A stretch of 64,000 nt of DNA from positions 32,001 to 96,000 of IMG/VR virus record IMGVR_UViG_3300025057_000003; one strand, given 5' to 3'. The position numbers were made by a program, and so were the translations under genes. A model generated the notes under the pieces. It was given only the letters and a program-made list of their open reading frames with translations. It had not been told where the DNA came from and ran no database searches. This document shows positions 3,001-45,347 of this stretch, piece by piece (positions within the stretch are counted from its first letter, which is position 1; each line of letters opens with the position of its first letter). This DNA is from a virus.

Positions 3001-5182
3001 TACATATGATAGTGAATTAGATTGTTTTGTAACTAATGGAAATCTTCCTTTAAAGAGAATAGAAATTTTACCGCCCCCAATATCAGTAGTTGTCCCAGGT
3101 CAAGGTGAATCTATAGATCAAAATCAACCAGTAACTCCAGGTAGTAAAAGATGTATTGAAATAGGAGATCCCGTTTATTTTGATGATTGTTCTTGGACGG
3201 TAAGTTATGATCCAAAAGCAGAAGCTTGGATATCATTCCATGATTGGCATCCTGAATTATGCATGTCTAGTATAAATCATTTCTTAACTATAAAGTCTGG
3301 TACAACAGATATACCTCAATGTCCTCCGGGATTTGTATATAATGCAGATTTAGAGAAATGTGTAAGACTTATAGATGTAACAGAAGATGCTGTAGTTTCT
3401 GTAGATGAATTAGCAATTGGAGTTCCAGATAGATGTCCTGAAGGGTTTACATTTAATGAACTTACGCAATTGTGCGAGAAGATAACAACTGCACCACTTA
3501 CATGTGAACCTACAGTATATGAGGTATGTGGTGGAACGCAAATAGTTGGAAACTATGGAAAGTTTGGAGCTAGATTTTATGAGCCAGTAGATCCAAATCC
3601 AGCTAATCTTCCAATACAAAGAGCTGGTTCAACGAATATTGAATACCAAAATGGAACTCCATTAACTTTAGTAGCTCAAGTGAATAGTACAAATAATCCA
3701 ACCGGATTTATAAATATATGGCGAGAAAGATTAAATACAGCAGGTGTATGGGGTAATGATGGCGCAGGTGGCCCATGTCCATCTAGAACGTCACTATCGG
3801 GAAGAGATCCAGTAAATGAGTGGATTGGATTTACAACATGTATTCAAATTCCAGAAACAAAAGTTTATAGTGTTTTTATAGCTGCAGATAATAGGACAAG
3901 ATTTAGTTTAAATGGTCAATTGATTGTAGATTTTGGATTATCGGGCCCTGTTGAAAATTTTCAATATGGTTGGGTATTTCCATTATTATTACCTGCAGGA
4001 ACAAGTATATTGCAACTAGAAGGGTATAATGATAGTTCTGTTGCTGCTTTTGCTGCAGAAGTTTATGATGCTACAGCATTAGAGTTAGCCGCATTTACAA
4101 CAATAGGAGAACTTGATGCTGTAAAAGTATTTAGTACAGAAGATTTAATTGGTAGTGGGGCTGTATTTGATATTGGTGAGGCAGGATTAAGTGGTTGTAA
4201 TTGCCCAGAAGGATTTATTTTATCTAATTGTGGAGGAGAACTACAGTGTGTTCAAATTGAAACAGCAGAACCCTCAGAAGGTTGTAATTGTCCAGAAGAT
4301 TACACTTTAGTTTACTTTAATAAAGATGAACAAAACTTTACATTACCTGATGGTGATTGTTTTAATGAAGAACTTCCTCCACCATTGTGTAGAAAAGTAG
4401 AATGTTTATGCCCTCCTGGGCCAGATCCAGATGCTATTGTTACTCAAAGCGGTCAATGTGATGATGTTTATCAATCAGGACCAAGCGGAAATAGATTATA
4501 TATAAATCCAAATCCAAGAAAGTGTATTTATAAATTACAAGAAGAAGCAGAACCTAATTTTAAAGTAGGTGGAATTTGGAGACACAATTATAGATGTGAC
4601 TTATTTGCAAATTACTATAATGTAGATTATCCATGGGAAGTGGAGCTAATTGAAAGTACGGGTCAAAATGTTATGACACTAAGAAGTATAGAGTACCAAT
4701 TAGAAAGTTTCGTATATAAAGGAAATCAATTCAATGCATGCGGTGATGATAAATGGCATGATTTAGATTTCAATTTTGATGAGTCAATTATTTATAATAG
4801 TGAGCAAGTATCAGGATTATTAAGATTAGAGCTAAGTCCAAAAGAAGATCCCATCAATGCATTAACATATCCAATTATAAATGCAAATGATATTCAAATA
4901 TTATATTCAAAAGAAGAACAAAAATATAGATTCAATCAGTTCTGGGATACAACCAATGACAGAGGTGAGTTTAGTAATGCTGAACAAAATATATTAATAA
5001 CACAATGTAATGGTTATATTAGAGAATTGAATGAGTTTAATTTAAATTATAACAAGGCTGAAGATCAAAGAAAGAAATTCAGACACTACTATAACAAAGT
5101 GTTATTAAGAAGAAATTTTTCAAATAATAAAAAGATGCTTCTTACATTAGTAAATTCAAAACTTAACCTATCATTTAGATAA
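2..5182 (+). CDS. Tail stabilisation/nozzle-type virion protein of crAss-like phage (5' truncated by window edge), with Cys-rich plus beta-sandwich insertion
   Basis: The frame is open from position 2 (VISNSGQEF...) into the track's ORF 119..5182. The motifs GMAYWQSTERYP..W.DLCGEPIRHHKFP, GDTYVGRY and SWTVSYDPKAEAWISFHDWHP resemble crAss-like tail stabilisation proteins, and the gene lies directly upstream of the ejected-cargo genes. Confidence 0.75.
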   Translation, partial: VISNSGQEFNFQVYNTASVTSINLTEPTDDGGTIIARGGMAYWQSTERYPATDPVRWADLCGEPIRHHKFPTEEISSSLELSANSGTRIRILGVEFSNIERPKFNDGTYIPNIVGYEILRGSRQGNKSILAKGIFRNMREYQIPDNEGVFGPKIGLYPNFPYNDLRADVYHYDGSAGNINWPWAGNSSSNFLGTDPVPRTDGCDTWSDSLSNFPPLTDYRRDIFTFHSPELMFKRPFLNPYEIRMYGAYSGESVGSFKASEEHPQNKLLRNGAAIIAGIIGVGYAIGQMQGTQQVKKVDATNSNTPWLPIWFLAGLANGTNVPGVNAVAAGTSTGTGAGSVAANIILNALLDEGTKLLDISLSGGSGSDIAFYVQAAIQQGLGLVPGMNGGGYERTYIKDKDTSLLPVIVKIITGVVNSRTNIAIGAQKIIDLMYNLISAEDFAFKYNSYGLFDSYHRTQSGIRFRSRNVQANYIGNTFTAFNTQFKINNLFRPDTVVIQTNDNFQIPQDLGAPQDRSRYCVGGDASGSYGDDYITNPNATQTKQISALYGALKFNYDNQYGQIEGIKQVSMSGCLYQIDTTKPDRFRYETGPIFSGDTYVGRYTEKTIMPIFSDFLYGQPDQYPYNYLQRINIPYPRFWMDTRKYDTSELATELSTLTLSNGPGLDGALPNDLFYLDRGGKCGTSLLGLFGADKGGNSAFAMRYGYMYTHVNGILDFFVESEVLLPNRDWEDSRGKRHYDNFRYTDVDELFHAQIIKEDNNYVYDYSLSASRFVTNLIPSGVIQPRDYDPDIAETCFSYYPKRLIYSLQAQEEAKKDFWRVFLPNNYRDFKDQVNVIKPINKNGAIIFFPYQSPQMFQGIDQLQTDLNTKITLGDGGLFSQAFQNLVNSEMSNEYGSCESQRGIINTPFGFFFISQAQGKIFQQNGQGLNPISNKGMKWWFNKYLPSNLIRQFPEFEFSVLADNPVIGIGCQVIYDITDDIAYFCKKDFSLKEEYEGLVTYDSELDCFVTNGNLPLKRIEILPPPISVVVPGQGESIDQNQPVTPGSKRCIEIGDPVYFDDCSWTVSYDPKAEAWISFHDWHPELCMSSINHFLTIKSGTTDIPQCPPGFVYNADLEKCVRLIDVTEDAVVSVDELAIGVPDRCPEGFTFNELTQLCEKITTAPLTCEPTVYEVCGGTQIVGNYGKFGARFYEPVDPNPANLPIQRAGSTNIEYQNGTPLTLVAQVNSTNNPTGFINIWRERLNTAGVWGNDGAGGPCPSRTSLSGRDPVNEWIGFTTCIQIPETKVYSVFIAADNRTRFSLNGQLIVDFGLSGPVENFQYGWVFPLLLPAGTSILQLEGYNDSSVAAFAAEVYDATALELAAFTTIGELDAVKVFSTEDLIGSGAVFDIGEAGLSGCNCPEGFILSNCGGELQCVQIETAEPSEGCNCPEDYTLVYFNKDEQNFTLPDGDCFNEELPPPLCRKVECLCPPGPDPDAIVTQSGQCDDVYQSGPSGNRLYINPNPRKCIYKLQEEAEPNFKVGGIWRHNYRCDLFANYYNVDYPWEVELIESTGQNVMTLRSIEYQLESFVYKGNQFNACGDDKWHDLDFNFDESIIYNSEQVSGLLRLELSPKEDPINALTYPIINANDIQILYSKEEQKYRFNQFWDTTNDRGEFSNAEQNILITQCNGYIRELNEFNLNYNKAEDQRKKFRHYYNKVLLRRNFSNNKKMLLTLVNSKLNLSFR

Positions 5183-8100
5183 TGAAAAAGTCATATTCAA
5201 ACATAGAGCGTAGAGGTTTACCGGGTGGACCCAATGAAGAAATAAATTTTAGCAACTTAAGTTATTCAACTCAAGGCTATAAAAGATTTAGTCCAGATGT
5301 AAACAATCCATTTAATCTTATTAATTCAGGAAGAATTACAATGAAAGATGTGGACTTTCCTGTTACGGGTATTGATAATCTTGGATATAGAATGACAATG
5401 ATGCCAGATGAAGAATATGAATTTCCAGGTAATGAAGTATTAGAAATACCTCACAGAACTCTAGAGAGCTTGCAACCGCATCATAAAGATCATCATAATA
5501 ATATACATGCTTTTGCTGGTATAACAGGAGATGCTGTTAACCATATGGGAGTATATGGAGGATTTGATACAAAGCATTTTGGTTTACATGGCTCTTATTT
5601 AAAACCTTTACAACAAATAGCACATAACTCAGGTGATATGCATTTAAGTGCAGAGTATAGAGGTGGTAATAATAGATTAAACTTTAATGTAGGCCCTACA
5701 TTTAATATGCATGGTGGCCATCCTAGCTTTGGAGTACAAGGTGGTTTAAGATTTAACTTTCAACCAGGTGGTGAGATAGAAGAAGATATGATGTATTCTC
5801 AACCTATTGAAGATATTATTAGTGATAGGAAGAATGATAGCTATGAGTACAAAAGATCTCAAGATCCTAGAACAGGGGCAATGAGTTATTATCAAAGAAA
5901 GAAAGGTTCTAACACTTGGAGAGATGCGGGCAAAGAGGGAAGTACAGGATACAGAGCTGTAACTAATGTATTTGGGGATGACAAGACCGGCTATGCAAAC
6001 TCACCAGAGAGAGCTCAGTTTCTAGATAAAATGAAGATGAACTATAGAATGAAGGACCAAAATTATATTAGAGGTCTTTTAGATAAAGCAAATCATCCTT
6101 TAGATTTAGTTTATGGTAATCCACAATTAGGCATACCTGCTTTTGGAGAACAGATTAAAAATATGTCTGAGTATAGAGAAGATTTTTTTGATCCATATGG
6201 AGATCAAGAAGATAAATATTTTGCAGAGTATGCGGCAACTCCACAAGAAAGAAAAGCTGCTGCACAACGGGCAAGACAAAATTATTTAAGTAATGTAGGT
6301 AGAACTGAAGAGGAAGATCAAATATATGAAGCAAAAAGACAAAAAGAAATTGATGAAGAGCATGCTAAATGGAGAGCAGAAAGAGAAAAAGATAGATTAG
6401 AAATGGGTCATGATGGCTTTGGTGGAAATGTAGTTGGTGGATGGGAATACACAGGTCAAACTCCAGATGAATATTATGCAGATATGCAAGACTCTGGACT
6501 TGGGGAGATAATGGATTATACAGGTATGACCACAGCAATGAATGTACTTGGTGTAACTGATATTATGAAATTAGGTATGGATGTTGAAGAAAAAGGTATA
6601 GGTGCTTTAACTGATGGAGGTAATTTGTTGACTGTAGCAGGTTTAATTCCTGGTATTGGTATGCTTGGTAAAGGTGCAAATCTTGTGGGAAAAGGTAGTA
6701 AACTTATTAAAACAGGAAAGAACGTAACAAAAGCTATAGATACAGGAAGAGATGTATATAATAAAGCATTAAAGCCAATTAATAAAACTTTAAATAAAAT
6801 TGGAGATGCTAAAAGCAGCAGTAAAATTTTAAATAAATACGGTGTTGGAAGCTTGAGTGATTTTAATAAAAATGTTCTAAAGAAAAATATAATATCATCA
6901 TCTAATCCAGCAATGCAAAAAAATATAGATAATGTTTTTAATACTACTAAAAAGCTTGGATTATCAAATGACTTATGGGGTGCAGCTACTGGATATGGAA
7001 TGTATAATTCATTAGATGCTGTAGATAGAATAGTGCATGGTGAAGGTAGTACAGATGATTTTGTCAAAGCAGGATTAAATTTTATACCAGGTGCAAATAT
7101 TGCTAAATCAACAGGTTTAGCTACGTATGGAACAAAGGCTGGTTTAAAGGCTATAGATAAATCAGGAGTATTTGATGATGAAAAAAATGAACGTCAAATA
7201 TCTCAACAAAACAACCAATTAAGAACAACAATGTTTCAAGGCGGTGGTGAAAGCGGAAGACGTAACTTAAATGATCTTTATGTTTCACCTTCAGATTTAG
7301 CTTATTTAAATAGACCATCTACAAAGAATGATCCTAATGAATATTATTGTAACCCGGGTGATGTAGGTTGTTTAGCAAGCTCTTATGATGCATATGATAA
7401 ACTTGTTGGACAAAGATATAGAAGTGATGAATTTTTATCGGAGCAAGGTTTAAAAAAATCTCTAGGCTTGCAAAGTTTACCAAGCCGATGGGATTCTCGT
7501 TCCGGAACAGGATATGACTGGGACCCAGAAACAAATGATTTTGTTTATTATAAAAATGACCAGGAAACAAAAAGATATAAGCCTGGATCTACCACACATG
7601 ATTGGATCATGAAGTATAAAGATTATTTCCAAAAAGGATATGAGGGAGAAGAGCAAGGTGGAGGATATGACTTTACAGCTGATAGCTGGGATATACATGG
7701 GATTCTTGTAGATCAAGGTGGAAAGAATGTATTTACTGGCGGTACTGAGTGGGATAACTATAACAAAACGGGTAACATAATGACTCCTGAGAAATTAAAA
7801 AACCTTTATTCAGAAATGACTCCCGGAACAATAATAGGTTTTAATAATTATAATAAAGGACTCAATCCTAAAAAAGGATTAACAGGTTCTGGTCATAGTA
7901 CCCAAGTTGTTGGTTATGATGAAAGAGGTGTTCCTGTAATATATGATTATGGTGATTATCTTCCAATTGATAAACTTGGTTTAGAACAGGGAGGTTTATA
8001 TAGTATAGATCAAATAAGTAATATCACTATACCAAAAGAACATATAGGAAAAAATTTAGAATGGGCAAAAGAAAAAGGTTATTGGACAGGCGAAGATCCT

Positions 8101-9300
8101 AAAGATTTAAATCTTAATTTAGAACCTATACTATCAAGATGGGGTCAAGATGATGATGAGCTTCCTGATTTTTATGCAGGTTTAAAAGATGAAAAGTTTA
8201 ATTTGATGGATGATCTTAACCTTAAAGAAAGTCAATATGATCAAATGGCCGCTGCACTTATAGGCATTGCAATGGAAGAAACAGAAGGTGGAGGTGGTTT
8301 CCAACATAATATAGAACAACTTTTACCTGGTACGGCAGGTCAAGATACTTCTGGTTTAACTCAATTAATGTGGTCTAATATTGCAGACGATGAAAAATTA
8401 AAGAAGATTGCTGAAAAGTATGGAATTACTAAACAATCAGATTTAAAAGATTCTAAAAAGTCTGCTATTGCTTCTATGATATATGGATCAAGAAACTATT
8501 TAGCCGCACAAAAGAATTTAAAGGCGGGAAAAAAAGAAGGTATTAGAACATATTATCCTCCAGGTTGGAAAGGCACACTTAAAAGATTAAAAGGAGATAA
8601 CCAAGTATATGATGGAAAAACATTTATAACAGAAGGTGGAAAACAAATAGATTTATTTACTGGAAATAATTGGTCGGGTATTGGCTGGACAAAAGACTTA
8701 GAGGATATTCAAGAACAACTTGATGCTGCATCTGAAGCTGAAGGAATACCCGGTAGATACACAGCACGTAAAACTACAGATGATGATGGAGATGAAGTAA
8801 TTGTTATAGATAAAAAGACTTTAGGTAATGCAGATATGGATCCTATAGATGCATTTATTTATAATTGGAATTCACCTTATGCCTTAACATCTGGGGATGC
8901 TCAGGGTGGATCTGGTTATGTTAAAAATGTTAAGAGTTGGATGGATCAGATAAAAATGCAAGCTGGTGGTGAAATTACTCCAGAGCATGTTCAACAAAAA
9001 CAAAAAACGTTGGAAGAAGAGTTAGCTAAAATGGAACAATATAATTTGAATCCTGCTCAGAAGATGCAACTTACAGAATCACTTATTGATGCATATAATG
9101 ATACGGTTCCTTATAAATTTAAAATGGGTGGCCCAACTCTTCAACCAGAATTCCAAATGTATAAAGATTATATAGTGGGTAAAGATGAGAGTGAGGATGC
9201 TAGAAGAAACTATGATAAACTTAATAGAGTTTACTATAGAGAAGCCAAAATCAAAAACATGAAACCGGCTAACTATATAATGAGTGAGCTGATATCTTAA
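5182..9300 (+). CDS. Multidomain virion/ejection protein: beta-barrel-like segment, shared module, NlpC/CHAP-like amidase, lysozyme-like (SLT) domain
   Basis: 1372 aa, TAATG-coupled to the upstream gene. CHAP/NlpC-like motifs: GCLASSY..DSWDIH..PGTIIGF..GHSTQVVG. Lytic-transglycosylase-like motifs: IGIAMEETEGG..TSGLTQL..SAIASMIY..YNWN..YVKNV. Confidence 0.7.
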   Translation: MKKSYSNIERRGLPGGPNEEINFSNLSYSTQGYKRFSPDVNNPFNLINSGRITMKDVDFPVTGIDNLGYRMTMMPDEEYEFPGNEVLEIPHRTLESLQPHHKDHHNNIHAFAGITGDAVNHMGVYGGFDTKHFGLHGSYLKPLQQIAHNSGDMHLSAEYRGGNNRLNFNVGPTFNMHGGHPSFGVQGGLRFNFQPGGEIEEDMMYSQPIEDIISDRKNDSYEYKRSQDPRTGAMSYYQRKKGSNTWRDAGKEGSTGYRAVTNVFGDDKTGYANSPERAQFLDKMKMNYRMKDQNYIRGLLDKANHPLDLVYGNPQLGIPAFGEQIKNMSEYREDFFDPYGDQEDKYFAEYAATPQERKAAAQRARQNYLSNVGRTEEEDQIYEAKRQKEIDEEHAKWRAEREKDRLEMGHDGFGGNVVGGWEYTGQTPDEYYADMQDSGLGEIMDYTGMTTAMNVLGVTDIMKLGMDVEEKGIGALTDGGNLLTVAGLIPGIGMLGKGANLVGKGSKLIKTGKNVTKAIDTGRDVYNKALKPINKTLNKIGDAKSSSKILNKYGVGSLSDFNKNVLKKNIISSSNPAMQKNIDNVFNTTKKLGLSNDLWGAATGYGMYNSLDAVDRIVHGEGSTDDFVKAGLNFIPGANIAKSTGLATYGTKAGLKAIDKSGVFDDEKNERQISQQNNQLRTTMFQGGGESGRRNLNDLYVSPSDLAYLNRPSTKNDPNEYYCNPGDVGCLASSYDAYDKLVGQRYRSDEFLSEQGLKKSLGLQSLPSRWDSRSGTGYDWDPETNDFVYYKNDQETKRYKPGSTTHDWIMKYKDYFQKGYEGEEQGGGYDFTADSWDIHGILVDQGGKNVFTGGTEWDNYNKTGNIMTPEKLKNLYSEMTPGTIIGFNNYNKGLNPKKGLTGSGHSTQVVGYDERGVPVIYDYGDYLPIDKLGLEQGGLYSIDQISNITIPKEHIGKNLEWAKEKGYWTGEDPKDLNLNLEPILSRWGQDDDELPDFYAGLKDEKFNLMDDLNLKESQYDQMAAALIGIAMEETEGGGGFQHNIEQLLPGTAGQDTSGLTQLMWSNIADDEKLKKIAEKYGITKQSDLKDSKKSAIASMIYGSRNYLAAQKNLKAGKKEGIRTYYPPGWKGTLKRLKGDNQVYDGKTFITEGGKQIDLFTGNNWSGIGWTKDLEDIQEQLDAASEAEGIPGRYTARKTTDDDGDEVIVIDKKTLGNADMDPIDAFIYNWNSPYALTSGDAQGGSGYVKNVKSWMDQIKMQAGGEITPEHVQQKQKTLEEELAKMEQYNLNPAQKMQLTESLIDAYNDTVPYKFKMGGPTLQPEFQMYKDYIVGKDESEDARRNYDKLNRVYYREAKIKNMKPANYIMSELIS

Positions 9301-9328
9301 ATTATAAATTAGTAAATGTTAGTAATTA

Positions 9329-9341
9329 TTTGTATATTATA
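9329..9341 (+). promoter_or_regulatory. Putative late promoter element TTTGTATATTATA
   Basis: Lies in the 63-nt gap upstream of ORF 9364; an identical 13-mer occurs at 43559-43571 upstream of the second late block. Confidence 0.5.
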
Positions 9342-9363
9342 ATTGTATGTAATAATATAAAAA

Positions 9364-12300
9364 ATGGGTTATAGAGATTTAAACAATAGAGGTTTGCATG
9401 CAATGAGGATGCAGCAATTTATGCAAGGAGGTGGTCAACCACAAATGGCGCCACCACAAATGGAAGCAAAGCAATCCCCTATAGATGAACTAATACCTGC
9501 TATAAAGTCAGCTCTAGAACAAGGTGCTGCTTTACCAGACGTTATTGTTAGTTTAGCGCAAAATCAAGTTCCAATTGAAGCTATCCAACAAGCTTTAATG
9601 GCAGCAGGTATAGCTCAAGAAGAAATTCAGCAAGCTTTTCAAATGCTGCAACAACAGCAGGCTGAACTTGAAAGTCAATCTCAACAAACAGAAGGACCTG
9701 TTGAACCTTCTGCTCAACCACAAGGAGGGGCACCTGCTCCAGAAATGGCGCCTGAGCAAGCTCAAATGCCAATGGCACAAGGAGGTGCTGAAATTGGATT
9801 TGCTCAACAAGGTCAAAATAATGTAGGACCTTCTATTAACTCAGATATCCCAGAATACCAAGAACCTATTGAAGAAGTCATCAGTGAAAGACTTGATGAA
9901 GAAGGTAAGGTAATAAAGGATAATTGGGAATACAAAAAAACTACAGATCCTAACACAGGTCAGATTTTTTATGAACGAAGAAAAAAGGGAAGTAAAAACT
10001 GGATTGATGCAGGAGAAGAAGGTAGTAATTCATATAGAGCTATTACAGATATTTTTGGTGATGACAAGACAAATTGGAAAAGTTCTCCAGAAAGAGCGGA
10101 TCATGTAGCAGGTCTAAAGCAAGGCTATAGGGATATGATGGCAGCACAAAAAGCTAAAGAGTTAGAGGCTGCAGCTCAAGAGCAAGGTATAGACTTTTCA
10201 AAATATGGTGTTAAGGTAATAAATTATCCATATGAATATAAAGGTATGCCTCCTGGACACATTGAAGCCGTATTCTATGATAAAGAAACAGGTGAACCAA
10301 TGAATGAAGTTGGTGGGATATCAACTAGAATTAATAGATGGGGTTCAGGTTATGGTGGCGATGGTCCAAGAATAACAGGAGATGAAGGTTATACTCAAGC
10401 ACTGGTAGATTTTGATGCTTTAAACATGCCAGGTGTTAGAAGTGCAGACTTAGATTTGACTCCAGAACAAATGATGCAATTTATCGCTGAGGCTAATAAG
10501 TTCAAAGGTACATCTTATAAGAATTTAAATGAAAAACAAAAGAATTTCTTAAAGATGATTAACCCTGATATTAGCCAAATACCTATGGCTTTTGGTACGG
10601 GTAGTGATGATAATTATGATTTCTTAACTTCCAATTGTGCAGATGGTGTTTGTAGAGGATTAGGTTTAGATAGAGATCAGTTTACATCTGCAGGAATAAC
10701 TAATCCAGAAAAAGTTATGGATTACATTTTACAAGGTAATAATATAAGCAATGTACAAGGAAAAAAAGGACCAAGTAAAGAAGAGTTTTTAAAAAATGTA
10801 ATTGATCAATCTGGAATTAATAAGTATACAATTGGCGGCTTATCTGATAAAAATATAAACATGTTGTCTGATTTTGTAGATAATATATCTAGAGAAGAGG
10901 CACAAAATCTAGCAACATATGCACCAATAGCTGCTCACTATGGTAACAAAACAAAAGAGGTTCTTAATAGAGGTATTGACTTAGATCAGTCCTTCGGAGA
11001 TATGCTTACAAATACTGGTAACTATTGGCGTGATTTAATTAAGAATAGTGCTGCAACTGGAATTGCAGGATATATGGCTCTTCCAGATGGTACTATACCA
11101 ACTGCGTTAGATGCTGGAGCAAGGGAATATATTTATGAGCCCATAAAAGATGCAACTGGTGGTTTAATTGATTTAGATCAATCTGCGGGTGACATGTTTG
11201 ACAACACAGTAAAATATTGGAAAAGAGAAGGAATTGGCGGTCTTTGGCCTTTTGAACAGGGGGGACAACCAAATAAATATTCAAGTATAATAAATGGTAA
11301 TAAAATGAAATATTCAAATCTATTTAAAAATGGAGGTGGTTATAATAACCCAGGCTTTAGATCATTACCTCAATATGTTCAAAACAAAATAAAAAGGAAT
11401 GCTCAGGAGGGAACTGAAATAGCAGAAGCTATACCTTTAGATATATCTGCAGAACAACAAGCATATATGGATGCTAAAGCTGCATATGATGCTGAGATGG
11501 CTAGAGTGCAGGGTGTTAGAAATAAGACTGCAGAGTTAGCTAGAAAATATGGTGATGCTAATGCATCTTACTCAGATGTAGGTATATCAGATAGATTAGC
11601 AAATTGGATTAATGATACAGGTTTTGCTTGTAATACATATTCTTGTCAGATTATGAGAGAAGCTGGAGCAACAATTCCACAAGGAACCGAACCATTTGAA
11701 ATGAATGGTAGAACATATCGTCCTGGAGATAAGCTTCCTATTATACCAGGTAATGCTCAATTTAACTCTTACGCTGATAAGTTAGGATTTGAACTTATGC
11801 CCAAAGGTACATTGCCAACAGAAGCTGGAGATCTTGTTAGAGGGCATATGTATAATGCAGGTCCGGGTGCAAGTAGCGGTTCATTTCATAGTGTGCTTTC
11901 TGCAGGGTATGGTGATGATGAAATTTTAGATCTATATAATAACCCAGGAGGTGTGTATTCAGGATATCAAAAATCTGGATTTGAAGGTAGTGATCCTGAC
12001 TTTTATACAAATGATTCTGGTGTAATGAGATATGTTGGAGACTCAATAAGATTAAAAGAAGCAATGGATAAAGCTAAGCAAGCATATGATGCAACCATGC
12101 CTCTTGATCAATCAGTAGTTGATTCAAATCCAAACTCTATAGCAAACCTTACTAGGCAATATGGAGGTGAAGGTATGGCAGAAATTCAGCAAGGTCCTCA
12201 ACGTACACCTAGCACGGAAGAATTAATGGCTATAATACAAAAACAACAGATGCAAATGCAACAAATGCAAATGCAGATGCAACAAATGATGCAGGCGCAA

Positions 12301-12453
12301 CAAGCGGAAAAAGAAGTTGGGCAAGCAGAAATGGCAATGCAACCTACTTATAGAACGCAGAGTGCTCAAAAGCAATCTGGAGGAACAGTAGAACTTGATA
12401 CTGAAACAATAGCAAAGATAATGGCTGCCGGTGGTAGCGTTAAATTTAAATAA
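9364..12453 (+). CDS. Multidomain virion/ejection protein with permuted papain-like and NlpC/P60-like domains
   Basis: 1029 aa with Q/M-rich ends. GHIEAVF...YDFLTSNCADGVCRGL gives His-before-Cys (permuted papain/PPPDE/LRAT order); ACNTYSCQIM..EAGDLVRG..FHSVL is NlpC/P60-like. Confidence 0.65.
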   Translation: MGYRDLNNRGLHAMRMQQFMQGGGQPQMAPPQMEAKQSPIDELIPAIKSALEQGAALPDVIVSLAQNQVPIEAIQQALMAAGIAQEEIQQAFQMLQQQQAELESQSQQTEGPVEPSAQPQGGAPAPEMAPEQAQMPMAQGGAEIGFAQQGQNNVGPSINSDIPEYQEPIEEVISERLDEEGKVIKDNWEYKKTTDPNTGQIFYERRKKGSKNWIDAGEEGSNSYRAITDIFGDDKTNWKSSPERADHVAGLKQGYRDMMAAQKAKELEAAAQEQGIDFSKYGVKVINYPYEYKGMPPGHIEAVFYDKETGEPMNEVGGISTRINRWGSGYGGDGPRITGDEGYTQALVDFDALNMPGVRSADLDLTPEQMMQFIAEANKFKGTSYKNLNEKQKNFLKMINPDISQIPMAFGTGSDDNYDFLTSNCADGVCRGLGLDRDQFTSAGITNPEKVMDYILQGNNISNVQGKKGPSKEEFLKNVIDQSGINKYTIGGLSDKNINMLSDFVDNISREEAQNLATYAPIAAHYGNKTKEVLNRGIDLDQSFGDMLTNTGNYWRDLIKNSAATGIAGYMALPDGTIPTALDAGAREYIYEPIKDATGGLIDLDQSAGDMFDNTVKYWKREGIGGLWPFEQGGQPNKYSSIINGNKMKYSNLFKNGGGYNNPGFRSLPQYVQNKIKRNAQEGTEIAEAIPLDISAEQQAYMDAKAAYDAEMARVQGVRNKTAELARKYGDANASYSDVGISDRLANWINDTGFACNTYSCQIMREAGATIPQGTEPFEMNGRTYRPGDKLPIIPGNAQFNSYADKLGFELMPKGTLPTEAGDLVRGHMYNAGPGASSGSFHSVLSAGYGDDEILDLYNNPGGVYSGYQKSGFEGSDPDFYTNDSGVMRYVGDSIRLKEAMDKAKQAYDATMPLDQSVVDSNPNSIANLTRQYGGEGMAEIQQGPQRTPSTEELMAIIQKQQMQMQQMQMQMQQMMQAQQAEKEVGQAEMAMQPTYRTQSAQKQSGGTVELDTETIAKIMAAGGSVKFK

Positions 12454-12454
12454 T

Positions 12455-15400
12455 ATGCCTAAAGTTAAAAACAGTAAACATAGGGTTGAGGTAACTTTAC
12501 CTGATGGATTTCAATTAGTAGATGGCAAACTAGTTAAAAAAGGACATGGTGGTCATGTTACCGGTGATCAATATGAGTATGGGTTAACTACATTTAATCC
12601 ACATGCTGGTGAATCTATGGGCCCAAAAGATACAGATGTAAAGTATAGCTTATCATCTGTACCTAGAGATATAGCTAATATAGAAGCTGAAGGTGGTGAA
12701 ACTGTTTTAACTGATTTAAATAATGATGGTCAGTTTGGTCTTTATGATATAGTTGGCCCTAGACATTCTAGCGGTGGTGTACCAATGTTACTACCAGAAC
12801 AATCATTTATTTTTTCTGATACCCAGGCAATGAAAATGGGTAAAGGTATGTTAGCAGAACATGGAATTCAGTCTAGAAAGAAGATGACTCCTGCTAAAGT
12901 ATCTAAACAATATAACTTAAATAAATATTACGGTATTCTAAATGATGAGTATGCAGATAAGATACAAGCTAATACAGCAGATCTTATGTTGCAGAAAAAC
13001 AAAGAAGGTTTATCTAAGTTAGCTTTTCAATCAGAGATGATGAAAGGATTTGAGGAAGGCGTACCTTTAGCCGCATATCCTTATATACAATCTATAGGTA
13101 TGGACCCATTTGAGTTTGCTCAAAAAATGGAAGGCATGCAGCAAGGTTCTGGTGATCAGCAAGCTCAACCAATGAATGAAGCAGATGCTCAAGCAATGAG
13201 TGCAATGGCTGCCTATGGTAGAGAATTAAATCAAGCTCAGTTTGGCTATGGTAACATTGGCGGAATGGGTTTTGATAATTATAGAAATTTCAATCAAGTA
13301 TTTGGTGAAGATATGGTACGTCCTAATATAAGGAGTGCTTATATGCCAATGAATCTTAATATGAAAGGGAATGCTATTGGTGCATTTAACAATCTTGTAG
13401 AAGGCGCTGGTAGATTATTTAGTAAGCAAGATGAAGATGGAGATGGTTTAGCTGATGGTGCTTTTAGAGATTTAAAAGCTAAAACTAATAGATATAGAGA
13501 TACTCATAAATTCTTAAAAGGTAAGACTACAGAGGGAATGGAGAATATGGGTGATAAAACTATGCTAAAGTATAATCCTGAAACAATGGGATATGATGTC
13601 CAGTATAATGATCCTAGATATCAATCTAATGTAAAAACGGGAGATATCTTTACAGAGAAAAGCAAGCGTAAACTAATGCATGCACCTGATCTAGAAGGCT
13701 ACAAGTCATTTAATGAAATGCAAAAAGAAATGTCAGGTTTATCTGATGATCAAAAAGACCAAATGAGATATATGGGTGAAAGCCTAACTGATTTTCAAAA
13801 CGAAAAGGTAAATATGCCAAAAGGGATGCAGTTTGGAATGGATGCTAGCGGAGGTATTGGATACTATGATGCGGGAGCAACTTTACCTGAAGGAAGTCAA
13901 GAGCGTATTAACGAAATGATGATGACAGGTAGTTATAATAAAAGACTTGGTGGAGGATTAAGAAAAGCTCAATTTGGAAACTTTGATTTTACACAATTAC
14001 CACCAGAGCTTGCAAAATATTTTCCTAATCAATCACAACAAGATTTTGGCCCTATGGGTCCTACACCGTATCAGCAAAAAATGATGAATCAAGCTGAGCA
14101 AATTAAGAATGATCCTGCAAGTTTTTTCCAAAACTTTAACCCGCAAACATTTGGTCAAACTGATGACTATGCTAATGTACAAAGTTTAGGTCCAGATCTT
14201 AAACTACAACAAGATGTTAAAAATAGAAATGAAGTAACTCCAGAAGATCCAGATCCACGAAATGCAGGAGAAAAATTAGCAGGAGGTATAAATAGAATGA
14301 TGAATAGCCCTCTTATGAATGCATTTGGTGAAGGTTCTGTTTTTGCAACTAAAGGTGCTGACTTTATAAATGAGATGGCAAAAAATAGAAAAAGAAAAAG
14401 AGCTGAGAATGATCTGCAGAGGATGACTATGGCAGATAATCAGTTTGGTATATCAGAGCCGGGTATATTATCTCAAGGTACTTATGATGAGAATACTGGT
14501 GATGTATTTTCAATTATGCAAGGTGTTTCTCCATTTGGAGGAAATGCTTCTTACTATGGTAAGCATGGTTTTGAAATACCTATGTTGCAAGATGGAGGAG
14601 AACCATCTTGGAAAGTAGGTGATGAGCTAACTGGAGGTACTGATGCTTGGACTGATTGGTATATGTCAGATGAGAATAAAGACGGAAGAAAGAAAAGATA
14701 TGAAACTTACGTATTCTTAAAAGAAGCTCAGGCAAAAAAGCAAGGAAAGACGTTTGATAAAAGCAAGCTTCCTACAGAAGAAGAATTTCATGATACTTAT
14801 GTAAGAGCTCAGAAACAAATCAATGCTATACAAAACTTTGATTTTGGTGATCCAGATTATTTAAAAAGAACAGATTGGGATTCTTCATGGGAGTTTGATC
14901 CTAAGTATAAGAATGCTAAACAAGCTTTAAAAGCTGGAGCAGCAACAAAAAGAGGTCAAAACTTTAGATATAAAGATGCAATTAAACAAATCAATGATAA
15001 GATTAAACAAGATGCTAAGGTAAACAATCCCGATATCACTGATGAAGAATTAAATAAACTTTTATTTAAAGAGTTAGATGACGCAGGAATTAGAATATTC
15101 CAAACAGGATATCAAGCTGGTCAAATAATGAATGTAGCAGATAATGATGAGTTTCTAAAGTTTATTCAGTCTGGTATTGATGATGACACATTTACATGGA
15201 ATGGTGTAACTTATACTATATCTCCTGAAGATGCAGCATTTGGTAATACAACTGTAGGTCAAAGAGAACAAACTACTGTACCTATATATCCTTGTAAACC
15301 TTGTCCTGATGGACCAGATAAAGGAAAAGTTCCTGAAAGAGATGAGGATGGTAATTGCCCTTGTGGTGATTGTCCTACATGTCCAGAAGGTAAAGTTCCC

Positions 15401-19761: not shown

Positions 19762-19765
19762 ACAT

Positions 19766-35463: not shown

Positions 35464-38400
35464 ATGGCAGTAAGATGTATAAATAAAAATCTAAGTGAGT
35501 TTACTGATATTGCAGATGCTTTAGGATCAGCAATACAAGCAAACAGTTTAATTGTAAGATGGCAGGATTCAAATAAAACAGATGCACTTCCTACTGTAAA
35601 GGAGGCCCTGGATTTTAATAAATCCACAATGGCTAATCATAATTTAAAAACAAAAGAGTTTGCGGGATCACTATATGGAAACTTAACTAGACTTGGTATA
35701 ATTTCTAAATATCATGGTAGTTATTATATTGTTTCATCTAGAAACAGGGTATTTGATCCTTCTATACGTGACTTCAACTTAAGAAGATTGTACAGCTATT
35801 TAAGAGTTAATAACATACCAAAAGAATCTATTGTTACAATGCAAAAAGGCAAAGGTCTAGCAATAGAAATAAAGGATAATGTTTTTACTCCTAGGGATAT
35901 ATTACCAGCAACTAGAGGATTTAATACACCTCATTCAAGAGAAGTAGTAAGACATCTTATGCGGATGTTCCCACAGGTAAGCATAACAATGCTATCCGTA
36001 TCTAAAGCTAAAATATTATATGATTCTTTACCTGATAGTCAAAAAGCTAATGTACCATTTGACCAGGTTAATTCTTTTTATGTAGATGGTCAAGCCGTCT
36101 TAATAAAAGGTAGGGTTACTGATGATGTGGCTATAGAAGAAATGTTACATCCTTTTATAGATAGTGTATATGTAGAAAATCAAGAACTATTTAATAATCT
36201 TTTAGAAGAGTCAAGAAAAAACTTTCCTCAGCTAAGGCAAGAGATTAATGATGCTTATTCAGACAAAAGAGGATTTACTCAAAAGCATAGAGATCTTGAA
36301 TTAGTTACTCAAGCTTTAAGTAGGCATTTTAACAAAGAGTATAAACAAAATGAAACTAAATCATTTAAAGATGCAGTTAAGCAGTTCTTGAATTGGTTCA
36401 TGGAAATTATTCAAAACTTATCTGAATACTTAACGGGTAAACCTCTTGGTGCTAGATCTATATCAGCTAAGGCTAACTTAACAGATATAGCTAAGTTATT
36501 AAATACATCAGATATTCAATTTAAACTTGAAAAAGTTGCGGATAGAAAAGTTAGATATAACCTAACTGGTACCGCAAAAATAGCATATGATAATGCAATT
36601 GGTTCTTCAAATGCTGTACAAAAACAAATAATAGAAACTTTATTTCATGCTGCTGTACATTCTCCAGAAAACATAGGAAATCTTGCAGCAACTACTTTAG
36701 AAGATGGAGCGCCAATTTTAGTTTTAGATGAAGCAACTCATACATATCAAGACTTAAATAATTTGACAAGACCTTGGATGAGCACTACAACTGCAATTAA
36801 AGGTAAAATGTCAAAAGAGCAAGAAGAAAAATACAAGTTAAATAGAGAACTTGGAAATGACTTTGATAATTTATTAAATGCACTATCTGCAGGTTTAAGT
36901 GTAGAAGATGTAGTTAATGAAATGAAAATTCTTGATGATCAGCAAGCTAGAGATGCATACAATGATTTATCAGATCAGTTAGAGATATTAAAGACAACAC
37001 CGCAAGGAAAGGCAATTGCTCTTCCACAGGTTGTAGTATATGATGATGCAACTGGTATGGCTGGTACTATTGACTTATTATTAATAGAGCCAAATGGAAC
37101 ATTGAGAATAGTAGATCTTAAGACTTCAAAAAATGGACTTAAGGATTATTCAGGATATACGCAAAGAACATTGAAGTATGATACACAATGGGATTTATCT
37201 GAAGAAAGTCAAATTAGACAAAAACTTGGCGTAACTAGATTATCAACCAGACAACAGCATAATACACAAGTAAATGTGTATAGAAGAATGTTGGAAAATA
37301 TGGGTTATACCATATCAACAAATGATAATGCTACGTCTACAATTCATGTTAAAGTAGATGTAAAAGGTGAAGGAAAGAAGCAAGAATTTAAAGGCACATT
37401 TAAAGTTGAAGAGTCTAGGGAGCACCCGATAGATCAAAATAAAGAATATGTAGATGCAATTGTTCCTTCTAATGTAAATGAAAATAGAAAGTCTAAGATA
37501 GATGAAGCCATGGATGGTTCACCAGAATCTTATGATCATTCATTTAAGCTAAACAATTTAACAAAAGAAGAGCAAGTTCCAGATGATAGTGTTATACAAG
37601 ATCCTGAATTTGCTATTGTAACTCAAGCTTTAAAAACTTATCAATTAGGATTAATAAAAAAGAATGATGCCATTGATCAGTTGAATAAACAAGTATATTT
37701 AGGTAGACATAAAACAACAGCAGATCTTCAAGAGCAAATATTAAATTCAATTAGTGCTATTAATGTTGCGCTAAGTTCTGCCCCACAAGCTAGATCTAGA
37801 ATATATTCTTCATTGCTTAGAGATGCTTTGGCTCAAATGAGAGAGTTTAAATCATATGTCCAAGATCCAAAAAACTTTGGTAAACCTGAGTATATAACTT
37901 ATGTTTTAAATTTTAATAATTTCTTAGGTACTTTCCAGGGTCTATATACACTGCAAGATTCTTCAGAGTTAAACGGCACTCAAAAAAGTTTAGTACTAAA
38001 CCTACAAACTGAAGCTAATGGTTTAGTGGGTGTTGGAAATTTTGATAATTATAAAGAAGGTATTATTGATAGAGCTATTCAGGATTATGTAAGAACTGTT
38101 GTTAAAGACAAGAGTAAAAAAGATATGACTGATGATGAGCTAGATAGAATAATGAAGATTGGAGAAGAAATTGGAATCATGGATCTAGGTACTAGAGATA
38201 TGGCTACACAGCGGGATACACTTCTTGCTATAATGGATAAAATATATAAGGCCAAGAAACAAGAACTTCTAGATAAAATACAAACACGAGAGGATTCAAT
38301 TAGAAGAACAGCATTAAAGTTGCAAAAATTAGCTCCTGAAAAAGATGCTCAAAAGATGTTTGACTTTATGCTTGTATTTGATGAGAATGGTGAATTTACA

Positions 38401-41160
38401 GGACGTTATGTTCAAAAGATAGGCCGCGTTTATTACGATAAGCTTAATGAACTGCGAGATAAACTTTATGATGCAGCGGGTAATCCTTTACAGTTTAAAG
38501 ATATTACTGATGCATCAACTGCAAGTGTAGAGGATCTTGAATGGAATATTAAACTAGCTAAAATGAAGAAAGATTTTTCTGACTTCTTTAGAGCTGAAAC
38601 AATAGGATTGAATGAACAACCAATTGATGGTAAGTATCATTACTATACTAAGGAGTTTAAAGATGCTAGAGCTAAGTACGAATATTTTGTAGCTGCGGGA
38701 GATCACGGTTACTGGAGAAGAAAAGATAATATATCAGACAGAGAATGGGATAGATATCAAGCTAAATATTTTACTTCAGGTATAGAAGTAGAAACAAGAA
38801 CGATTGCTAAGAGAGTTGATGGAGAGTTTACCGGTGAGGTAATTCATGACTTTGGTAAACCATTTGTACGAAATGAATATAGAAAGATTAGAGATGATGT
38901 AAAGATTGATGGTAAAGATATTAAAAGTGATAAGTATAATGCGATAATGAATGATACTTCAGCTCTTGGTATGGCTAGGAAAGAGTTCTATTTAATGTTT
39001 AAAGAATTGTTTGAAGAAGATCTATTAAAGAAACTACCTAAATCTACAAGAGATAAAATGATAGGGCGAGTTCCTGTTATTAGAGGTAGAATAACTCAAG
39101 ACCTAAAGGCAAAACCTAGTATAGTAACAAAGATGTTTGCTAAAACAACCCGTGGCATCAAAAATCTTTTTAGAGAGACTGGTCAAAATAGAACAATGTT
39201 TGCTAATGAGGATGGTGAATTAGTTGACTCATTACCTATATTTTATACAGGTAGCACTAGAACAGATGCTCAGCTTGAAGCTCTTGATCTAGAAATAGAA
39301 GCTTTAAAACAAGATAGAGCAGATGGTAAAATAAAAATAGAACCATATAAAAAGAAACTTAAAGAACTTGAAGGCACAAGAGCTCAGTTAGAAAATAAAC
39401 CTACCAAAGAAGAATTAAACAGAGATATGGGTAATGCTTTGTTAAAATTTGCAGGTATGGCTGAGCACTATGAAACAATGGGTACAATTGAAGATACAAT
39501 GAAAGCTTTCTTATACCAACTTGAAAAGCGTCAGTATACTACACCCGAAGGTTCTGTAAAAAAAGGTGTGAGGACTGTATTAGGATTTCAAGAAAAGGCT
39601 TCAATTAAAGGTTCAGATTCTAGAGTTTTAACTAGAGCTAAGAAGTGGATGAACATGGTGTATTATGATAATGATCAGATAACAAAAGGTTTCTGGGAAA
39701 AGGTCTCTGATGGACTTATTCAGTTATCATCATTATCTTATGTTGCATTTAACCCATTTGGTAACTTTAATAACTACGTCCTGGGTCGGGTCAATGATAA
39801 CATTGAAGCAATAGGTGGTAGATTCTTTTCAGCTAGTTCATATGCCCGTGCTAGTTTAGAATACAATAAAAGAGCTATGCCAGATCTAATCCATAGATTG
39901 TCAGCATCTGTTAACAAGTTAGGTAAATTAAAACAAGGTGATTATGATCCAGAAAAAGCTACTAGTAAATATGAAGCTTTTGTAGAACTGTATAGAATGA
40001 TGGATGATGCATCAGATATACGTGAATCAGGATCAGCTATAGATAGAGCTGGAAAATCTTTATGGAGAAGATTTTTAGATTTTGGTTATGTAATGCAAGA
40101 TGCTGCAGAATGGAATGTTCAAACTAAGGTTGGTATGGCTATGATCATAGATACTAGAATCAGAAACAATGAGACTGGTGAAATACTAAGTTTATATGAT
40201 GCATTTGATTTTGATGGAAATACAAAAGAACTAAAGTTAAAAGAAGGTTTTAAAACTATAGTTAAGATAGATCCAAAAAATGTAGATGAAAATGGAAATT
40301 CTAAAGTACTAAAAGAAATAGGAGAATATAATGATGATTTTAGATATCAACTAAGAAATGAGATCCGTGAAGTAAATAAACAAATTCATGGTAACTACGC
40401 CTATGAAGATAGAATGGTTATTCAATCTCATACTTTAGGAAAGCTAGCAGCACAGTTCCATAAGTGGATTGCACCTGCATATAGAGCAAGATTTGAAAGA
40501 GAATATTTTGATGAAAATCTTGGCTGGATGGAAGGAAGATATAAGTCTTGGGGTAAGTTTGTATGGTATGCTTCAAAACAATTAGCTAAAGGAAATATGG
40601 CCTTTAATAAATATGCTTCAGGTTTCTTAGATGACTATGGTTATTTAAAAGATGGGGACGAGCAAGATAATCAAAGAGCTTTAAATAAACTTCAAGGTTT
40701 TTATAGAACTACTGGTGAAATTGGTATAACAATGTTAACCCTTGTTATATTAGAATTAATGAAGACACTGTGGAGAGATGGTGATGATGAGGATAATGAA
40801 ATACTTAAAAGATTTCAAAATATAGCAATGTATCAAGCAGATAGAACATTTAAAGAACTTATATTATTCTGGCCTGTATTCGGATCTACACAACAAATGC
40901 AAATGGTTAAGTCTCCAATTGCATCAACAAGAACCATGGGTGAACTTGGTGAGGCTTTATGGGGATCAATTGAAACTCCGTTTTATTTCTTAACCCAAGA
41001 TGAAAATGAAATTAAAGGTAATTCAAATGTATACTATCAAAGAGGTTCACGTAAGGGCTCATTAAAATTAAAGAAACAATGGCAAGATGTTGTTCCTATT
41101 TGGTATAGCATTAAGAAATGGCAAAATTATCTTGAGATGAATAACTTCTTTATTAAATAA
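35464..41160 (+). CDS. Large virion cargo protein with degenerate zincin-like and PD-(D/E)xK nuclease domains
   Basis: 1898 aa. AIEEMLHPF..ELVTQAL is zincin-like with the first His replaced; AGTIDLLLIEPNGTLRIVDLKTS..QVNVYRRML is PD-(D/E)xK-like. Confidence 0.75.
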   Translation: MAVRCINKNLSEFTDIADALGSAIQANSLIVRWQDSNKTDALPTVKEALDFNKSTMANHNLKTKEFAGSLYGNLTRLGIISKYHGSYYIVSSRNRVFDPSIRDFNLRRLYSYLRVNNIPKESIVTMQKGKGLAIEIKDNVFTPRDILPATRGFNTPHSREVVRHLMRMFPQVSITMLSVSKAKILYDSLPDSQKANVPFDQVNSFYVDGQAVLIKGRVTDDVAIEEMLHPFIDSVYVENQELFNNLLEESRKNFPQLRQEINDAYSDKRGFTQKHRDLELVTQALSRHFNKEYKQNETKSFKDAVKQFLNWFMEIIQNLSEYLTGKPLGARSISAKANLTDIAKLLNTSDIQFKLEKVADRKVRYNLTGTAKIAYDNAIGSSNAVQKQIIETLFHAAVHSPENIGNLAATTLEDGAPILVLDEATHTYQDLNNLTRPWMSTTTAIKGKMSKEQEEKYKLNRELGNDFDNLLNALSAGLSVEDVVNEMKILDDQQARDAYNDLSDQLEILKTTPQGKAIALPQVVVYDDATGMAGTIDLLLIEPNGTLRIVDLKTSKNGLKDYSGYTQRTLKYDTQWDLSEESQIRQKLGVTRLSTRQQHNTQVNVYRRMLENMGYTISTNDNATSTIHVKVDVKGEGKKQEFKGTFKVEESREHPIDQNKEYVDAIVPSNVNENRKSKIDEAMDGSPESYDHSFKLNNLTKEEQVPDDSVIQDPEFAIVTQALKTYQLGLIKKNDAIDQLNKQVYLGRHKTTADLQEQILNSISAINVALSSAPQARSRIYSSLLRDALAQMREFKSYVQDPKNFGKPEYITYVLNFNNFLGTFQGLYTLQDSSELNGTQKSLVLNLQTEANGLVGVGNFDNYKEGIIDRAIQDYVRTVVKDKSKKDMTDDELDRIMKIGEEIGIMDLGTRDMATQRDTLLAIMDKIYKAKKQELLDKIQTREDSIRRTALKLQKLAPEKDAQKMFDFMLVFDENGEFTGRYVQKIGRVYYDKLNELRDKLYDAAGNPLQFKDITDASTASVEDLEWNIKLAKMKKDFSDFFRAETIGLNEQPIDGKYHYYTKEFKDARAKYEYFVAAGDHGYWRRKDNISDREWDRYQAKYFTSGIEVETRTIAKRVDGEFTGEVIHDFGKPFVRNEYRKIRDDVKIDGKDIKSDKYNAIMNDTSALGMARKEFYLMFKELFEEDLLKKLPKSTRDKMIGRVPVIRGRITQDLKAKPSIVTKMFAKTTRGIKNLFRETGQNRTMFANEDGELVDSLPIFYTGSTRTDAQLEALDLEIEALKQDRADGKIKIEPYKKKLKELEGTRAQLENKPTKEELNRDMGNALLKFAGMAEHYETMGTIEDTMKAFLYQLEKRQYTTPEGSVKKGVRTVLGFQEKASIKGSDSRVLTRAKKWMNMVYYDNDQITKGFWEKVSDGLIQLSSLSYVAFNPFGNFNNYVLGRVNDNIEAIGGRFFSASSYARASLEYNKRAMPDLIHRLSASVNKLGKLKQGDYDPEKATSKYEAFVELYRMMDDASDIRESGSAIDRAGKSLWRRFLDFGYVMQDAAEWNVQTKVGMAMIIDTRIRNNETGEILSLYDAFDFDGNTKELKLKEGFKTIVKIDPKNVDENGNSKVLKEIGEYNDDFRYQLRNEIREVNKQIHGNYAYEDRMVIQSHTLGKLAAQFHKWIAPAYRARFEREYFDENLGWMEGRYKSWGKFVWYASKQLAKGNMAFNKYASGFLDDYGYLKDGDEQDNQRALNKLQGFYRTTGEIGITMLTLVILELMKTLWRDGDDEDNEILKRFQNIAMYQADRTFKELILFWPVFGSTQQMQMVKSPIASTRTMGELGEALWGSIETPFYFLTQDENEIKGNSNVYYQRGSRKGSLKLKKQWQDVVPIWYSIKKWQNYLEMNNFFIK

Positions 41161-44819: not shown

Positions 44820-45347
44820 ATGCCTTATAATATGAAAAAAGCTGGTATGAAATACCAAGATGGAGGGTCTATAAAAAAAACAGCAAAAAAAGCTGTAAAT
44901 AAAGCAAAGTCAGTAGATGATGCAATTGAAAAAAAATATCCTTCAGTTGCAAAAAACCCTGCATACAAAGGGGCGAAGTCTGCAGCTAAAAGTACCTTAA
45001 AATATCTTGGCTTAATGCAGAAAGGTGGAGCAATGAAATCACCAGATGCTTCTAAATATGTGGGTAATCCAATGGGTTACTATGCTGATAAAGCAGCTTA
45101 CGGAAGAGAGATGGCCCGTCAAAAGATGATGCAAGGTGGTGGTGCTTATGACAGTAACATTGAAGCTCTTAATGTAATAGAACAAGAGCGTGATGCTATG
45201 CGAGCTAGAAAACAAAACAGATTGGATTCTAAATTAAAAAGAAAGCAAACAAAAGAAAAAATCTCTAGTGTTAATGCAGATATAGCTAGAAATAGATCTG
45301 ATAAAAGAGCAGCTAATCAATCTAATAGAATGTTTAAAAGAAGATAA
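44820..45347 (+). CDS. Basic protein with multiple QxGG motifs (candidate internal head protein)
   Basis: 175 aa containing YQDGG, MQKGG, AAYGRE and MMQGGG. Confidence 0.7.
   Translation: MPYNMKKAGMKYQDGGSIKKTAKKAVNKAKSVDDAIEKKYPSVAKNPAYKGAKSAAKSTLKYLGLMQKGGAMKSPDASKYVGNPMGYYADKAAYGREMARQKMMQGGGAYDSNIEALNVIEQERDAMRARKQNRLDSKLKRKQTKEKISSVNADIARNRSDKRAANQSNRMFKRR

Follow-up and report, generated by a model that had tools for sequence, protein, structure and literature searches.

Why should a large protein of a phage particle carry, in its interior, a stretch that looks like the wall of a porin? The question is raised by 64,000 nucleotides of DNA from an uncultured marine phage (the window; bases 32001–96000 of the 115,584-bp IMG/VR virus record IMGVR_UViG_3300025057_000003, which is rated complete), in which the open reading frame (ORF) at 5182..9300 on the plus strand encodes P0001, a protein of 1372 amino acids. 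An earlier note, made from the letters of this DNA alone, had singled out a segment of P0001, here termed module B, as an outer-membrane β-barrel-like module that might be ejected from the virion. Module B is a real, conserved and unannotated domain with outer-membrane-barrel character in an unusual place. By analogy it is best classed as a virion-embedded, signal-less form of the six-strand viral outer-membrane protein (OMP)-like half-barrel, mounted on a virion lysin.

The segment first described, nucleotides 5497–5760, corresponds exactly to N106..F193 of P0001, and the QPGG said to follow it at once is residues 194–197. Residues 91–198 are 16.7% Gly and 7.4% Phe and hold 13 of the 23 His of the whole protein (12% versus 0.8% elsewhere and 1.7% overall; binomial P ~5e-12), in agreement with the earlier remark that the region is unusually His-rich; this richness is confined to the close clade, the divergent variants at loci L005 and L027 (below) not being His-rich, and H136 is present in 23 of 25 homologues. 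The hydrophobic moment at β-type (180 degree) periodicity gave z = 2.6 and was matched by 14 of 2000 shuffles. Conservation across homologues is stronger evidence than any such single-sequence statistic. About 20 alternate positions of module B have no charged residue in any of the 25 homologues; positions 122/124/128, 133/135/139, 153/155/159, 166/168/170/174/176 and 183/185/189/193 are always hydrophobic and polar residues, charged residues or Gly occupy the positions in between, so that the amphipathic alternation originally noticed is borne out as a conserved hydrophobic face. Conserved aromatics lie near the strand ends (F128, Y159, F168 and F193 on one side, Y139 and F183 on the other) with aliphatics between, an arrangement that, on the predicted strands, may correspond to the two aromatic belts of membrane barrels. 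One longer loop has an invariant P142-L143-Q144. The last strand fits the β-signal consensus polar-x-G-x-x-aromatic-x-aromatic through Q186, G188, F191 and F193, of which G188 and F193 are invariant.

AlphaFold2, run on residues 1–200 with a 25-sequence alignment, placed six strands in module B (109–117, 121–129, 133–142, 152–162, 166–177 and 180–191(193); predicted local distance difference test (pLDDT) 56–70), which are long and in meander order, with tight turns and the one longer loop. The sheet was thus predicted, but Foldseek, the comparison that the earlier note had proposed, found nothing significant in the PDB, either for this model or for a second model of residues 684–1270. PDB structural comparison was made with VIA-align in its place: approximately 39 of the 50 best structural matches of the module B model were membrane barrels (root-mean-square deviation 2.4–5 Å over 79–95 residues), the matched portions being wall sections of larger barrels. 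In a viral library (Foldseek BFVD) the best matches, after homologues of the N-terminal module of P0001 (module A, below), were cyanophage "outer membrane protein-like beta-barrel domain" proteins, with E values of 4e-3 to 0.4. Both the meander of six strands and its resemblance to a barrel wall are therefore predictions of low confidence; in its modelled geometry the module is much closer to the walls of outer-membrane barrels than to soluble folds. Neither a soluble non-barrel fold nor disorder, without a hydrophobic belt, emerged from structure prediction and conservation. The barrel-like description accordingly holds for the predicted geometry of the wall, but not for a barrel of the OmpA/OmpX type, as the module has only six predicted strands, no signal peptide was detected in P0001, and no OMP family could be linked to the module by sequence or profile.

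No Pfam family matched module B at E ≤ 10, PDB sequence and profile searches (with the whole protein, alignment A1 and the module-only alignment A3) returned spurious matches only, and whole P0001 and its sub-segments gave no family matches in Pfam or PHROGs. An exhaustive phmmer search with residues 91–200 against 1.84 billion representatives recovered eight proteins, each a phage protein of this same type, with no bacterial protein and no bacterial OMP among the matches. Module B (here amino acids ~98–193) is found in about 25 of more than 100 homologues of module A. Among 80 related IMG/VR loci, collected with alignment A1 (a module-only scan gave no pattern match), a local hidden Markov model (HMM) detected module B in three; run against 2965 six-frame ORFs from 84 loci, the HMM picked up module B in L005, L006 and L019 only, in each case in this protein and in no other. 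Module B is a rare, lineage-specific insertion between module A and the first of a series of Gly-Gly (GG) junctions. The N-terminal modules were delimited by BLAST and by alignment of the >100 homologues, and the features of P0001 are as follows.

5182..9300, plus strand: whole gene of P0001, 1372 amino acids, in the virion block
5266..5451, plus strand: module A, a small β domain, amino acids ~29–90 (homologue alignment and fold model)
5452..5505, plus strand: His-rich linker including HHKDHH, amino acids 91–108 (predicted to be disordered, pLDDT < 50)
5506..5760, plus strand: module B, six predicted meander strands, amino acids 109–193 (alignment and fold model)
5737..5760, plus strand: last strand Q186–F193, β-signal-like (consensus fit)
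5758..5775, plus strand: first GG junction F-Q-P-G-G-E, amino acids 193–198 (conserved module boundary)
5773..5961, plus strand: module C, a separate shuffled module, amino acids 198–260 (homologue alignment)
7231..7251, plus strand: second GG junction M-F-Q-G-G-G-E, amino acids 684–690 (start of the conserved C-terminal enzyme block)
7285..8040, plus strand: predicted NlpC/P60 (papain-like) peptidoglycan endopeptidase-like fold, amino acids ~702–953 (fold prediction)
8098..8970, plus strand: predicted lysozyme/lytic-transglycosylase-like fold, amino acids ~972–1263 (fold prediction)
8956..8973, plus strand: third GG junction M-Q-A-G-G-E, amino acids 1259–1264 (motif)
amino acids 1313–1317, plus strand: fourth GG junction F-K-M-G-G (motif)

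Module A, which the model renders as a small β domain (pLDDT 60–80) followed by the disordered His-rich linker, is 55–73% identical at the N-terminus of >100 large proteins encoded on 40–120-kb phage contigs, many of which also carry SLT, LysM+YkuD, PG_binding_1, NlpC/P60 or lysozyme Pfam domains. The 11-residue His-rich core of the linker (aligned LESLQPHHKDH) occurs in the closest relatives only. The junction after module B is conserved as F-Q-[PD]-G-G-E, and in module A proteins without module B, such as gp041 of phage phi17:2, module A passes straight into x-Q-x-G-G. Homologues of 855 amino acids have the NlpC/P60-like domain directly after the module B junction, a domain reached in P0001 only after residue 684; others have 130–380 residues of further modules inserted at this point, and in P0006 and P0011–P0015 inserted sequence parts module C from module B. 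Because the insertions and deletions of homologues fall exactly at the GG motifs, these are true module boundaries; cleavage at them is something that we infer.

Motifs of the form [hydrophobic]-[QKE]-x-G-G recur at the module boundaries of the giant virion proteins (window 5182–16342); three are present in a 175-amino-acid ORF (44820..45347), and two small ORFs that lie immediately before the window (G000:C1:28990-29847) have P-G-M-[FY]-K-K-G-G-S in common. A near-invariant G-L-P-G-G-P-N-E (residues 12–19, window 5215–5238) precedes module A in forms with a long N-terminus, and many homologues begin only at residue ~28, after this motif, which is possibly a further processing or boundary site.

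The genome setting is that of virion genes. Terminase, portal (921 amino acids) and major capsid genes and then tail genes all lie upstream of the window, which begins inside a virion structural gene of 2138 amino acids (phrog_37948); this is followed by seven very large ORFs, including those of 1372, 1029, 1303, 1119, 5244 and 1898 amino acids. The ATG of P0001 shares one base with the stop codon of the 2138-amino-acid tail-block gene (TAATG, window 5180–5184), an overlap that suggests translational coupling of the two. Further along the block, the 5244-amino-acid ORF (window 19727–35461) is followed by the 1898-amino-acid ORF (35464..41160), which has an exonuclease-like region (phrog_298); by analogy with crAss-like or N4-like phages, the former is possibly a giant enzyme carried in the virion. 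Cultured relatives are limited to the Cellulophaga phages phi17:2 and phi4:1 (Lightbulbvirus), both with GG junctions but lacking module B, whose 895-amino-acid "virion structural protein" (gp041/gp40) has 39% identity to P0001 residues 29–130 and matched the N-terminal model of P0001 in BFVD (Foldseek E 1.2e-4). With its gene in the virion block and with virion-annotated homologues of module A, P0001 is presumably carried in the particle. A signal peptide was not found, the N-terminus being polar (MKKSYSNIERRG...), nor was a strong α-helical transmembrane segment (best 19-residue Kyte–Doolittle window 1.21, at amino acids 485–503); the inner-membrane "hydrophobic modules" that the earlier reading had also envisaged were rejected, as no segment of P0001 exceeds this value, short of transmembrane-helix hydropathy.

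Downstream of the second GG junction, the model of residues 684–1270 (mean pLDDT 72) contains the NlpC/P60-like and lysozyme-like folds, neither of which is recognized by Pfam (window 7285–8970). Cys723, Cys730 and several His of the NlpC/P60-like domain are invariant in the clade. On these predictions P0001 bears peptidoglycan-hydrolase catalytic folds, as virion-associated hydrolases do. Because P0001 is encoded in the virion gene block and carries cell-wall hydrolase folds, it is reasonable to read module B, as was suggested earlier, as a part that is ejected and acts on the outer membrane.

Variants in relatives differ in strand number. L005 has a divergent module B that ends ...I-G-I-N-A-G-I-K-K-T-F-R-K-G-G-G. 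In L027 (8361–8900) a 2357-amino-acid homologue has, at the position of module B, a 180-residue Asn/Tyr/Gly-rich array of ~12 strands by eye, in which three hairpins (77 inserted residues in alignment A3) are added to the six strands of module B; the array ends ...N-F-L-F-Q-D-G-G. Kinship of this array with module B is weakly supported by sequence comparison (hhalign: 74 columns, 31% identity, Prob 18%). No stand-alone relatives of the L027 array (99–315 amino acids) were found; the array has a sub-threshold match to DUF6588 (23.6 bits). When 368 [hydrophobic]-[QKRE]-x-G-G junctions from the large ORFs of all loci were ranked by the β-moment of the preceding 60 residues, the module B variant of L005 was 1st, that of L006 3rd, the window's own 5th, that of L027 8th and that of L019 29th. 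In L021 (12696–13193) the gene after that of the module A protein encodes 1183 amino acids and has a different OMP-like hairpin segment near its C-terminus (...GLNLGLGAQTRI...LRLFTDAQYN...IGASVTF), directly before an EDGG junction (...G-A-S-V-T-F-E-D-G-G); this barrel-like segment had no Pfam match.

How does module B compare with known outer-membrane barrels? With OmpA, OmpX, Ail, Lom and the OMP_b-brl family (PF13505) it shares strand length, dyad alternation, Gly and aromatic usage and the motif of the last strand; as in monomeric outer-membrane barrels generally, its strands (judged across the 25 homologues) are amphipathic and of 9–12 residues, with a lipid-type face and aromatic belts. 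Monomeric barrels, however, close in one chain with at least eight strands, whereas module B has six predicted strands; and they have a Sec signal peptide and a C-terminal β-signal, whereas module B starts at residue 109 of 1372, lacks a signal peptide and has the motif internally.

The best non-homologous viral structural neighbours are the cyanophage Phage_OMP proteins (PF24653/IPR056410, once labelled DUF680). According to a 2026 preprint, a member of this family has six strands that make an incomplete barrel, and models pair two of them into a dimer of 12 strands; part of the family is encoded in virion-assembly loci. Our comparison set consisted of six PF24653 members from Syn9, S-RSM4, P-HM1, P-SSM2 and P-SSM4 (L090–L095); the PF24653 model found six domains in these five cyanophages, with signal peptides present and Y-G-x-K-V-G-x-K-Y-x-F at the end. 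All five T4-like cyanophages checked have one or two PF24653 genes, P-SSM2 having two within ~1 kb. Like these proteins, module B is viral and has ~100 barrel residues in six strands, and its last strand, F-G-I-N-x-G-F-K-x-N-F, is of the same type as theirs. In contrast, the cyanophage proteins are small (~120 amino acids) and stand-alone, with a signal peptide and a true C-terminal β-signal, whereas module B is internal to a 1372-amino-acid protein. The PF24653 HMM had no match on module B or across the 115.6-kb genome at E ≤ 10, and by hhalign only the last 14–16 columns aligned (Prob 1.5–8%, both profiles being shallow, Neff ~2.5–2.8). As only the last strand aligns, module B is an analogue and not a demonstrated member of this family.

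A multi-chain outer-membrane barrel with few strands per chain is known from the YadA-like anchor (PF03895), and the L027 hairpins resemble its last hairpin. The anchor has four strands, is C-terminal and is exported by Sec and BAM, whereas module B has six predicted strands and is internal. The score of the L027 array against YadA_anchor, 31.4 bits (cut-off 22.7), is the sum of three partial hits of 8.5–10.8 bits and shows a likeness in the kind of hairpin but not membership of the family; PF03895 had no match in module B or in its own genome.

In proposed function, a comparison can be drawn with podophages, whose outer-membrane pores (T7 gp14, P22 gp7 and DEV gp73) are helical, DEV gp73 being a long helix that forms a nonamer. 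These proteins are virion-carried, are expelled and open the outer membrane ahead of periplasm-spanning partners, which is much the role proposed here for P0001. They are, however, small helical proteins with no sequence or fold relation to module B, a β-hairpin array fused to enzymes. T7 gp16 is an internal virion protein with a lytic transglycosylase domain, used in crossing the cell wall. P0001 resembles virion hydrolases of this type in having a lysozyme/SLT-like fold in a large virion protein, to which it adds an NlpC/P60-like fold, but it has no sequence similarity to them and its domain order is different. We know of no such virion-associated hydrolase with a barrel-like module, and no description of a β-barrel ejection module was found in the literature searched.

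What, then, might module B do? We tentatively favour the reading that it is an ejected module which oligomerises into an outer-membrane β-barrel. Module B would be a lineage-specific, six-strand incomplete transmembrane-type β-sheet in a virion-borne, probably ejected, cell-wall-degrading protein. P0001 would be carried in the particle and, at infection, extruded through the tail largely unfolded; several copies of module B would then pair edge to edge to give a closed multi-chain barrel in the host outer membrane. Calculated from R = b / (2 sin(pi/n) cos alpha), with b ~4.8 Å and alpha ~40 degrees, Cα radii are ~12, 18, 24 and 36 Å for 12, 18, 24 and 36 strands. On this geometry a dimer (12 strands) could pass an unfolded chain, and three to six copies (18–36 strands) would be needed for a barrel wide enough for DNA. 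Both flanks of module B are on the short-turn side; if this is the periplasmic side, as it is in bacterial barrels, the endopeptidase and transglycosylase would be placed in the periplasm, next to the peptidoglycan that they would open. Ejection, oligomerisation and membrane insertion are steps that we infer.

The fold model is weak (residues 1–200: mean pLDDT 58.6, predicted template modelling score 0.39), and the β-signal motif alone occurs at chance frequency in the phage proteome (13 seen; 11.2 ± 3.3 expected from shuffles). The motif was consequently rejected as stand-alone evidence and weighs only as the end of a six-strand array; of the β-signal-like ending claimed at the outset, the fit to the consensus is retained, but the strand is internal, with 1179 residues following. 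The weakness of the model leaves room for the main rival, a structural sheet of the particle. In that case module B never meets a membrane and its hydrophobic face packs on other copies or on tail or portal proteins, for example as an inter-subunit β-barrel that lines or plugs a channel, as in tail-tube lumens, and anchors the lysin in the virion. We consider this rival a serious one though on balance unlikely. The structural neighbours of module B are overwhelmingly membrane barrels and not tail-tube, Ig-like or sandwich folds; Gly-rich strands, aromatic belts at both ends and a β-signal-like last strand are hallmarks of membrane barrels; a strand number that varies in hairpin steps (6 versus ~12) would be awkward for a fixed socket; and most relatives keep module A without module B.

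A distinctly less probable alternative is an attacin-like domain that binds or perturbs the outer membrane or its lipopolysaccharide, and so loosens the outer leaflet or tethers the hydrolases with no defined channel. In a protein atlas the named language-model clusters nearest to two divergent variants, module B and that of L027, were Attacin_C/Gloverin, followed by porin families, with scores of 0.81–0.82, no better than chance in the calibration of this tool (<0.9). The insect attacin Hill_BB_C10074 of Hermetia is a Gly-rich open antiparallel sheet that, like module B in the reading proposed here, is delivered from outside; it has been modelled as an oligomeric 12-strand barrel and for which outer-membrane damage was measured; its best structural neighbours, as for module B, are transmembrane barrels (KdgM 4pr7, FyuA 4epa, TamA and BtuB). 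A His-rich polar face could, in addition, allow charge- or metal-dependent binding, but His-richness is not conserved across the family, Attacin_C (PF03769) had no Pfam match on module B at E ≤ 10, and attacins are secreted immune proteins of eukaryotes, whereas module B is phage-encoded.

It is very improbable that the segment is a metal- or pH-sensing His-rich spacer with no fold-dependent function: the number of His (13 in 108 residues) and their location, chiefly on the polar face, would suit such a role, but conservation is far weaker for the His, which are not enriched in the L005 and L027 variants, than for the strand pattern and for the positions of Gly, Pro and aromatics. Known phage decoy and exclusion proteins are exported in the infected cell via a signal peptide; as none was found, P0001 has no Sec route into the periplasm of the cell that makes it. 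A decoy that blocks the host barrel-assembly machine (BAM), or a superinfection-exclusion factor installed in the outer membrane of the infected cell, both raised in the earlier note, is thus the least credible option, with nothing in its favour beyond a last strand that has the β-signal consensus and is similar to the terminal strand of cyanophage Phage_OMP proteins, and the precedent of phage-encoded OMPs such as lambda Lom that can exclude superinfection (as cited in the 2026 preprint), set against a motif that is internal and at chance frequency and a fusion to virion module A and cell-wall hydrolases that suggests entry and not exclusion.

The reading of module B as an ejected, oligomerising barrel can be extended, more speculatively. 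Marine phages of this kind (relatives of Cellulophaga Lightbulbvirus and of crAss-like phages) would deliver their own outer-membrane channel as β-hairpin cassettes in ejected polyproteins, each cassette closing with a β-signal-like strand directly ahead of a GG junction, released or exposed by processing at that junction and forming a multi-chain barrel for the entry of protein and DNA; assembly would be spontaneous or via the host BAM, from the periplasmic side. We regard this extension as doubtful.

Module B is short, conserved and readily tested in vitro, and is worth a test at the bench. Outer-membrane opening by short-tailed phages is known for a few models only, with helical pores. If the proposed role is true, phages would have a second way through, with no structural relation to the first: a virion-borne porin-like half-barrel coupled to cell-wall enzymes, a β-barrel ejectosome as opposed to the helical pores of T7 gp14, P22 gp7 and DEV gp73. 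Nature would then also offer a case of barrel assembly from outside, or from a chain injected unfolded, which is relevant to spontaneous versus BAM-dependent folding; the 6 and ~12 strands of relatives would in turn be relevant to how barrels evolved out of hairpins. Should module B prove to be merely a buried structural sheet, it would still represent a new domain and reveal a modular GG-junction architecture of giant virion proteins.

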